Shown: in pieces, positions 6,201 to 8,429 of the stretch | How positions within the stretch are numbered: the first letter of the stretch is position 1 | How the letters are laid out: every line of letters begins with the position of its first letter | Source: Octopus vulgaris | Taxonomy: Eukaryota | Assembly: GCA_951406725.2 (NCBI GenBank) | Contig: OX597822.1 | Coordinates: forward strand, 14,074,001-14,138,000 | Direction: 5' to 3' | Length of the DNA stretch: 64,000 bases | Notes under the pieces: generated by a model | What the model saw: only the letters and a program-made list of their open reading frames with translations | Databases searched by the model: none | Told to the model about the DNA's origin: nothing | Translations under genes and position numbers: made by a program

Positions 6201-7549
6201 CAATTCATTTAATATATAATGTGGTCTATATTGTTTTCCATTTACTTTTTTTAATATTTACTTGTTTTACATATTGTAAAGGCATCATTTTATTTTTCAT
6301 ATTTTAAATGCGTCACTCTTTGGACTGTGGCCATACTGGGGCACCACCTTGAAGGGTTTTAGTCAACCTCCCACCCCCAGTGCTTATTGCTAAATCTGGT
6401 GCTTATTCTGTTGGTTACTTTTGTCGAACCACTAAGTTACAGGGACATAAACATATCAACACCTGCTATTACGTGGTGGGACGCAGAGATAGACAAACAG
6501 AAAGTCATACATCTACACTTATATACATGTGTGTGTGTGTGTGTCTGTGTGTGTGTGTGTGTGTGTCTGTGTGTGTATGTGTGTCTGTGTGTGTATAAAT
6601 CTGCCACTTTTCCGCCTCTCATAAAAATTAAGATCATTTCTTTATTTGCCACAAGGGTGGCAGATGAGATTACATGACAACAATTACAAGAAGAAGAAAG
6701 AAAAATTAATGAAAATGAAAGGAAGACTTGCGAATTTACAGAGTCATTGGAGCTTTGTACAGAATGCCTTACATCATTCGTTTTGACCCGCTGCATTCTG
6801 AGATCACACGCTGTCAGGGTCATCTATGTTTTTCATACTTTTGGGGCCAATAAAAAATTATCAATCTAAAGTTGAACTATGAAAGAGGGTCAGGAAAGAT
6901 GCCACCTGGTATGTGTTTCAACACTTTTGGTTCTGACAGCAACCCCATCTACGATCCTGGTGCCAACCTATATCAGCCCAAGTGAGCAACCTTTCTCTTT
7001 GATAAACATTGTAGACGTGAAAAGGACGAGACTCGCATGCATGGACAACAACAGTCTCCCTCAAAATCTTTCCCAATGCCTGCACAAGCATGTTCTGATG
7101 GTTGGTCAAACTTGAACTACAGAAATCCCGTTTGCAAATACAGAAAGGGAGGTTTACGTGGAATCGATAACGAGAAAACAGACAAGAAAAAAAGCAATAT
7201 AACCTTAAAATAGTAAATTGGGGATTCACTGTAGTAGTTTGAGGGCCCCATGAAAATATTTTGCATTAGATATATTTCTTGCAAGAGGCAGTTTAAAATC
7301 GTCCAAGTTTTCAGCCAATGAAACTTATTCTCTCAGAGAGTGAAATTGCAAACCTACACAAGTGAACGTGTGAGAAACAAAATAGGAATTTTGAAAGAAA
7401 ACCCAATAAAACTAGTTTTTAAACACTGGATGGTTATGGAGATGGGAGTCCACCAGAGTAAAAACAGTAATTAAAGGTACAGTTCTATATTTAAGAGATG
7501 AGAAATTATGAAAATTATTTACATTATTTACAGTGTTTACATAATTTAT

Positions 7550-7622
7550 GGGCACATGGCGTAGTGGTTAAGAGCGCGGCCGACTAACCCCAAGATTCCG
7601 AGTTCGAATCCAGGCAGTGACC
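7550..7622 (+). promoter_or_regulatory. tRNA-like module with Pol III A and B boxes (not a functional tRNA)
   Basis: A box TGGCGTAGTGG at 7557-7567 and B box GTTCGAATCC at 7602-7611. Partial acceptor stem GGGCAC/GTGACC. A second copy lies at 55853-55925 (-). Confidence 0.7.
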
Positions 7623-7702
7623 TGAATAATAATAATAATAATAACAACAACAGCATCGAAAAATACCTTAGGAATGAGAACCCAGGTTCGAAATTTTCCC
7701 AA

Positions 7703-7748
7703 GACACCTGATGAAGGCTGGAGGAAATATCAACCGAAACGTTGTGTT
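7703..7748 (+). ncRNA. Minimal hammerhead ribozyme motif
   Basis: Stem I GACAC/GTGTT, CTGATGA (7708-7714) plus a bulged A, stem II GGCTG/CAACC (CAGCC in the 33.2-kb copy), GAAA (7736-7739), CG, GUU cleavage triplet. Confidence 0.7.
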
Positions 7749-8429
7749 AACAACAAACAAGATAAGGACAAATATACGTCAAATGTAAATAATGTAAAAG
7801 TAATTAAAGGTGTTCATAGGAAAAAATGGTTGAGAACCATTTATGCAGACGTTTGCTACTTGCGTCGGGTTTCTTTGTCAAATTTTGCTTTCGCTTCAGT
7901 CTTGTGTGCAAACATATATTTAGATGAAATTAAAATATTAATAATAAAAATTAAATCAATAAATTAAGAATTGCAGGGATGTAAAAGATTATCAATGTTT
8001 TGAGATGAGGCTCTTTTTCAAGGGAGAGAAAAAAATCAAGGAAGAAAAGGAAAACTGACAGCGTTTTGATTTTAGAGCCGTAATAATAATGGTTGATAAT
8101 GGTCTGTAAGTTGTTGAGTTGTTTCTGAGAGAGGAGGGTAGAGATGGACAGGACATAAAATGACTAAAGAGAGCAATGAGTAAGTAGAACAGATAAGTGT
8201 TGGTATGGGCGCACTAGTATGAATGTGTGAGTAAGGTGAGAGTTGATGGGAGAAATGAAGGAATCTGTGGGGGGAAAATAATCGATTAAATCCAGCAGAT
8301 GATAACGTGCACAAAAGCAAATCGATCGTTGATATGAAAGGAATCAGAGAGTGGAGAGTGACCTGGCACTAGAATATACCAAAGACAAATGTGTGGGTAG
8401 AGGGAATAGCTAATTGAAATAGCATGCAA

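Follow-up and report, generated by a model that had tools for sequence, protein, structure and literature searches.

A SINE-like hammerhead repeat of Octopus vulgaris is the pLTR of a coding Penelope-type element and begins with a tRNA-derived segment

The 320-bp insertion at positions 7479-7798 of the 64-kb stretch of Octopus vulgaris DNA analysed here (the window) is a solo pLTR of a coding Penelope/Poseidon-type PLE and not a copy of a separate SINE. The coding partner is abundant in the genome and now decayed. The element belongs to a known class, and the apparently undescribed point is the presence of a tRNA-type promoter within the coding element itself. The features of the insertion and of the two related insertions in the window are listed below in window coordinates.

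7466-7478, plus strand: left TSD of 13 bp, AGTAATTAAAGGT, read from the sequence; 13/13 positions identical to the right copy
7479-7549, minus strand: inverted, 5'-truncated left arm, consisting of family tail and of repeated copies of the 9-nt body-end unit
7550-7623, plus strand: head derived from tRNA-Arg(ACG), with which the pLTR begins; without cloverleaf (genomic tRNA alignment)
7557-7567, plus strand: A box (sequence; alignment to genomic tRNA)
7602-7611, plus strand: B box (sequence; alignment to genomic tRNA)
7625-7652, plus strand: (AAT)n/(AAC)n spacer, the length of which varies between copies
7674-7796, plus strand: opening ~41 codons of the partner PLE ORF, with the in-frame ATG within the pLTR
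7694-7697, plus strand: TTTT arising from a C>T substitution; 5' of the hammerhead, it could act as a Pol III stop in the window copy
7703-7748, plus strand: minimal type I hammerhead, predicted cut after 7743 (sequence and pairing)
7784-7798, plus strand: body end, the more upstream of two fixed family 3' ends and the probable RT initiation site
7799-7811, plus strand: right TSD of 13 bp, AGTAATTAAAGGT (sequence)
33131-33634, strand unspecified: second family insertion, arms head to head, tail on the right
55692-56228, minus strand: third family insertion

The perfect 13-bp repeats that bracket the insertion and the A and B boxes had been reported in the first-pass annotation, and both are confirmed. 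The right arm (7550-7798) comprises the A box, the B box, the (AAT)n spacer and the minimal type I hammerhead. The left arm had been described as an inverted copy of the insertion's own 3' end, which is correct for positions 7514-7532, a mirror of the right end, but not for the remainder; most of this arm is the ~30-nt family tail, which is missing from the right arm. Ten positions (4.6%) separate the window copy from the family majority; a change at one of them disrupts a pair in stem II, and a change at another gives rise to the TTTT at 7694-7697, a minority allele found in 12 of 78 units. The copy is an ordinary family member, diverged by about 5%. The main arm of the third insertion continues ~234 nt 5' of the head and takes in 3' UTR and endonuclease C-terminal sequence from the partner ORF. 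Elsewhere in the window, exons of a RING/NHL host gene (Pfam zf-C3HC4 and NHL) lie at 39857-42688 and 22506-22970 on the minus strand, with the 7479-7798 insertion ~15 kb past the last exon seen, and a ~300-bp near-perfect palindrome (98% self-complementary) occupies 11166-11468.

The family is large. A sample of 100 fixed-step 10-kb stretches (1 Mb) from contigs C1-C17 contained matches in 19 stretches, counted by hand as 20 insertions, which corresponds to an estimated ~56,000 insertions in the genome (95% interval 34,000-87,000); the window itself holds three. A genome search gave 4,878 candidates, 40 of which were scored. Copies recovered with a 3'-only query share a common sequence 5' of the head, and one of them enters an endonuclease-like reading frame. 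A peptide from this frame yielded 2,292 genome candidates, of which 150 were scored and 30 loci were fetched. The tRNA head directly follows the short 3' UTR of the ORF in 22 of these 30 loci; two of the other eight carry the unit with the head mostly deleted, one is rearranged and five end before the end of the ORF, and an alternative 3' UTR was found in none of the 30. In longer copies, the ORF is decayed, ~2.3 kb long and includes an RT domain (Pfam PF00078, E 1.8e-8), whereas the GIY-YIG domain, not significant in Pfam for the family ORF fragments, was assigned by motif and homology. No intact family ORF was detected among the 150 scored of the 2,292 candidates, the longest open frame being 410 aa. 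Relatives of the RT include an anole protein of 836 aa (42% identity) and a Neptune-type ORF of the same genome (~31%), and the sequence points to the Penelope/Poseidon clade for the coding partner.

Neptune-type families, young representatives of which were found by a GIY-YIG profile search of the genome, were also considered as the partner and rejected, the unit being present in none of them (30 of the 150 loci from this search fetched). One such young family, with many intact 781-aa ORFs, is represented by L061:745-3087 (G000:C16:20836000-20845000). At ~4060-4170 of the same locus, the Neptune-type 3' end apparently carries a hammerhead with a U3-A8 core variant and abuts (TA)n, and at 5292-5306 (minus strand), on the edge of an unrelated element, there is an exact 15-nt match to the family tail, which may be due to chance or represent a common end motif. 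DNA contigs under four other organism labels cover both the ORF end and the unit, which we take as an indication of family presence only; a few pieces extend from the end of the ORF to the first bases of the head, but among the contigs listed, none bridges the ORF and the head with certainty by 31 letters on each side.

The unit is connected to the coding element at the other end as well. In the ORF-bearing copy L152, the tail located 5' of the ORF is in frame with it and continues into it, and this frame begins at the internal ATG of the unit (7674 in the window). The insertion had been thought to lack coding sequence; in fact, 7674-7796 is an open frame of 41 codons that runs through the hammerhead and matches the N-terminus of the full-length PLE protein P0019 (847 aa; 12/20 identities, E 6e-6), a similarity that could in part be due to conservation of the ribozyme; the 65 residues that follow also match the P0019 N-terminus. 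Because the unit is at once the 3' end of the ORF element and the start of its ORF, it is a PLE pLTR. It displays the traits of EN+ PLE pLTRs throughout, namely a terminal repeat of an RT ORF (GIY-YIG by motif and homology) with the ORF start inside and the tail leading into the ORF, an inverted 5'-truncated arm, a one-sided tail of 30-40 nt, a TSD and a minimal hammerhead.

The head itself is most similar, among the 10 tRNA types tried, to tRNA-Arg(ACG) of the same genome (53 identities over 74 nt, z 9.2). The tRNA-like fold claimed for it was not recovered: ARAGORN detected no tRNA, Rfam gave no match either at the gathering threshold or at E<=5, and the MFE fold is not a cloverleaf (z +0.62). 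Two other observations concern tRNA-like sequences. About 19 tRNA-Arg(ACG)-like copies, some of them 206 bp apart, are clustered within 20 kb at G000:C2:211887729-211907132, and a tRNA-like sequence, possibly unconnected with the PLE, is located ~480 nt before the match to a PLE ORF fragment in a metagenome contig (L309).

The anatomy of the insertions, with tail, inverted pLTR and TSD, is that described for PLEs (PMC3846280; PMC8557442). One tail-end arm is combined with one body-end arm in 45 of the 47 two-armed insertions, a PLE signature that lends good support to the mobilisation by Penelope machinery proposed in the first-pass annotation, and TSDs of at least 8 bp (8-15 bp, 77% AT) were found in 31 of the 47 compared to 1 of 47 shifted controls. 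The proposed check of whether the 5' ends gather at the tRNA start was also run, and the random truncation that would have spoken against it was not observed: of the 20 insertions in the 1-Mb sample, 7 are truncated within the unit and 13 reach the head, 10 of which stop there within a ~25-nt interval and 3 continue upstream (-41, -52 and -520; hand count), a pile-up with P 3e-12 under uniform truncation. There is no single sharp start, given that the number of retained upstream bases is spread over 0-7 in 30 of 34 arms (strict pattern match), the commonest class being the 7 bases of a hairpin arm (7/34). This hairpin, a native, GC-rich imperfect palindrome, spans the first bases of the head; many junctions are fold-backs centred on it, and a second internal inverted repeat at +17 likewise gives rise to fold-backs. 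The fold-back class is under-called among the 34 arms, for which pooled counts alone were used, and automated 5' ends at -19 to -8 partly result from palindrome mimicry, so that the native motif on the far side of the palindrome served to decide whether an insertion continues upstream. Canonical pLTRs start with palindromes of 18-38 bp, for which self-priming has been proposed (PMC3846280). Since the head hairpin is native and palindromes are also found in the Adineta pLTRs, the 5' clustering need not imply Pol III; it fits an RNA start at the head as well as an RT stop or self-priming at the hairpin, and the data do not separate the two.

The hammerhead has its core at 7708-7714 and 7736-7743, with the GUU at 7741-7743, a 5-bp stem I, an extra nucleotide after A9 and a palindromic, zero-loop helix III. 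It had been described as intact, which is accurate for the core, located ~80 nt past the head, but not for stem II, which in the window copy contains one C-A mismatch (G>A relative to the family majority), nor for helix III. As the helix III loop is missing in the window copy and in the family, the ribozyme could fold only as a dimer. The short helix I, the extra nucleotide after A9, the loopless palindromic 15.2-16.2, the dependence on a dimer and the occurrence mostly as single truncated copies are all shared with the minimal hammerheads described for metazoan PLEs, from which the ribozyme itself is no different, the window copy having in addition its stem II mismatch; such hammerheads are reported to cleave poorly in vitro, and only as dimers (PMC4209133). 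An unrelated second minimal hammerhead motif is present at 31054-31100 of the window (plus strand), beside a (TA)n tract, and is probably the end of another PLE family.

Two readings would detach the unit from its coding partner, and together they correspond to the free-standing SINE or retrozyme borrowing Penelope enzymes that was envisaged in the first-pass annotation and that we abandon. According to one, the PLE is parasitised in trans by a Pol III SINE lineage that is independent of it and has master copies of its own. The unit does resemble a SINE2 in its tRNA-derived A/B-box head, discrete 5' end at the head, length within 100-700 nt and high copy number; furthermore, short units that start at the tRNA head outnumber the ORF-bearing ones by ~20:1 (1 of the 20 sampled insertions has an ORF), and any short copy with intact boxes could be a master. 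However, the same head is present in the autonomous, coding element, and the 3' part is a PLE pLTR, not a LINE-derived tail indicative of LINE mobilisation. We compared 79 units containing the head and the 3' part (61 short and 18 ORF-linked, a small set enriched for well-conserved short copies). None of the 18 polymorphic sites is diagnostic, one CpG site reaching p 0.035, and non-CpG subfamily alleles are common to short and ORF-linked units; the divergence is 5.2% and 6.9%, respectively, a difference biased by how the short units were picked and given no weight here. The first codons of the ORF are also still open in the short-unit majority. The sampled units thus show no sign of a separate SINE lineage, and we regard this reading as improbable. 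The other, a retrozyme-like RNA with a template made by hammerhead cleavage (and circularisation), appears to us very improbable indeed. It would account for the conservation of the minimal type I hammerhead across the family, similar motifs with different stems being found in related PLE loci, and has a parallel in Sm-alpha, a tRNA-related SINE-like repeat with hammerheads (PMC2770079). Non-LTR retrozymes, however, are head-to-tail tandems of units each with a type I hammerhead, and no such arrays were seen among the loci examined, where copies are single or head to head. Cleavage-defined 5' ends were sought and rejected: the 48 internal ends do not pile up at the GUU cut, 3 of them lying within 3 nt of it and none exactly on it, which is about the chance expectation. 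Since full units extend across the cut site, their template was uncut RNA, and in the anole element hammerhead mutations left insertion in vitro unaffected, the ribozyme being dispensable in that assay (PMC11167929). The hammerhead is best seen as inherited from the pLTR and unnecessary for explaining the insertion, as part of an explanation that we consider, as a whole, somewhat more probable than its alternatives combined.

Pol III terminates at runs of four or more T, and the ORF strand of the family is poor in such runs. In 15 kb of sequence from ten natural ORF copies there are 3 TTTT runs, each confined to a single copy, with none shared in the 2.3 kb; the 2.6 kb of L152, its 3' pLTR included, are free of them. 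By comparison, all 63 related PLE ORF stretches of at least 1.2 kb (from 80 loci, shorter or interrupted ones being excluded) have at least one TTTT, with a median of 3.2 per kb at similar T content. None of the 20 TTT runs of L152 extends further, whereas the Neptune-type ORF of the same genome has 9 extended runs out of 32 (Fisher p 0.009), and related PLE ORFs with a comparable T content have 234 out of 882 (P 0.002). The test is a modest one: codon shuffling gives a P of only 0.03 for zero TTTT runs, the 10 copies cannot be treated as independent, some controls of 1.3-2.3 kb contain just one run, and a 500-nt control from the same genome (L031) likewise has none. The depletion is not significant in the single copies L146 and L147 alone (P 0.06-0.15), and it is weak under a first-order Markov null (P 0.045-0.58) because this null absorbs the depletion of TT. 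No A and B boxes were found between the ORF and the hammerhead in the related PLE control loci scanned. RNA-seq reads (unstranded and under an organism label unlike the top DNA source) show no pile-up of starts or ends, and 74% of them run into unlike sequence, a pattern of passive read-through that carries no implication for Pol III. Among the sources listed, none is recorded as RNA.

The T-run depletion is a hint of Pol III transcription, which, judging from the promoter boxes and the scarcity of terminators, is plausible for the short copies and possibly extends to the whole element. In the boldest form, a coding PLE that captured a tRNA-Arg promoter in its pLTR would be read end to end by Pol III, having purged every TTTT from the 2.3 kb of its ORF strand, and SINE-like solo pLTRs would be shed in their tens of thousands by that promoter; we offer this only tentatively and would not expect it to hold in full. 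The head might instead be inert, an old tRNA or SINE piece in the 3' UTR of a PLE transcribed by Pol II, with the 5' boundary set by an RT stop or self-priming at the hairpin. This explanation draws on the native palindrome at the start of the head with the fold-back junctions centred there, on the 7-base hairpin-arm class being the largest, on the fold-backs from the repeat at +17 and on the self-priming palindromes of canonical pLTRs (PMC3846280). It does not readily accommodate the A and B boxes, which are intact in the family majority despite the loss of the cloverleaf, nor the location of the head ~125 nt ahead of the ATG, the expected place for a pLTR promoter, and it leaves the scarcity of TTTT on the sense strand unexplained; we consider it rather unlikely, albeit deserving of attention.

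The explanation that we favour, and hold to be moderately probable, is that the insertion is a solo pLTR of a coding PLE, produced from an RNA that starts at the tRNA head and is primed at two sites, with short units as by-products. The RT/GIY-YIG protein of the element would cut both target strands ~13 bp apart, and two cDNAs would be primed from the cut strands at two internal RNA sites, at +123 and ~+155 from the ATG, as in the anole Poseidon element, for which two internal RT start sites and uncut RNA as the main substrate were reported in vitro (PMC11167929). The cDNA of the right arm would extend as far as the head, where the RNA starts, that of the left arm would halt after ~70 nt, and the two would be joined head to head. 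In an RNA started at the head, the RT start sites would lie within 280 nt, which would make short units, of which there are ~20 per ORF-bearing copy, a built-in by-product.

The closest known systems are the pLTRs of anole PAc and of Adineta Pen2a and Pen3a (PMC11167929; PMC3846280), which share with the octopus family an ORF for RT plus a GIY-YIG-type domain at the C-terminus, an ATG and a hammerhead within the pLTR, a palindrome at the pLTR 5' end, an optional one-end tail of ~30 nt, an inverted 5'-truncated arm, solo pLTRs and TSDs of 8-15 bp in AT-rich DNA. They differ at the start of the pLTR, which in the octopus family is a tRNA-derived A/B-box segment, whereas a putative TATA/Inr promoter is given for Adineta (PMC3846280) and the pLTR promoter is left unspecified for the anole element in the available part of the report (PMC11167929). 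The TRIMp3 elements Cassandra, Helenus and Ajax similarly have a small-RNA-derived Pol III promoter in a retroelement terminal repeat, but are non-autonomous LTR elements, the autonomous partners of which are argued to need Pol II (PMC10886601); in the octopus, the coding element itself is tRNA-headed. Animal non-LTR retrozymes (bioRxiv 10.64898/2026.07.22.740005) and Chlamys MRC1 (PMC8557442) are also short non-coding, pLTR-related units with presumed mobility in trans, but the retrozymes are defined by head-to-tail tandems, and the available part of that preprint describes no tRNA head.

Among tRNA-related repeats, Sm-alpha is tandem and satellite-like, with a canonical hammerhead. The octopus SINEs OK, OR1 and OR2 (Ohshima and Okada, 1994) are reportedly related to tRNA-Arg and similar in size to the PLE unit. 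OR2 has been listed as a CORE SINE (PMC4758252). The Schistosoma Sm-alpha and Sj-alpha repeats (PMC2770079) share with the octopus family the tRNA-related, SINE-like character, the hammerhead and a very high copy number, but the octopus unit can be shown to be a coding element's pLTR, and its insertions have the arms of a PLE. The literature covered contained no account of a PLE whose pLTR is tRNA-derived, and the family may already be present in Repbase or Dfam as a SINE or a Penelope element, or in the published octopus repeat library.

According to the accepted view, autonomous retrotransposons are transcribed by Pol II, and Pol III promoters occur only in short non-autonomous elements (PMC10886601). 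If the reading in which the whole element is transcribed by Pol III is true, this rule would have a counter-example in a coding PLE whose pLTR is tRNA-derived and whose ORF is terminator-free, and the questions would become how a transcript without a cap can be translated and what role is played by the in-frame hammerhead. The family also exemplifies a LINE-free route to SINE-like elements, since a pLTR with internal RT initiation is a template complete in itself, and some 56,000 repeats of the octopus genome that are likely labelled as SINEs are the ends of PLEs.
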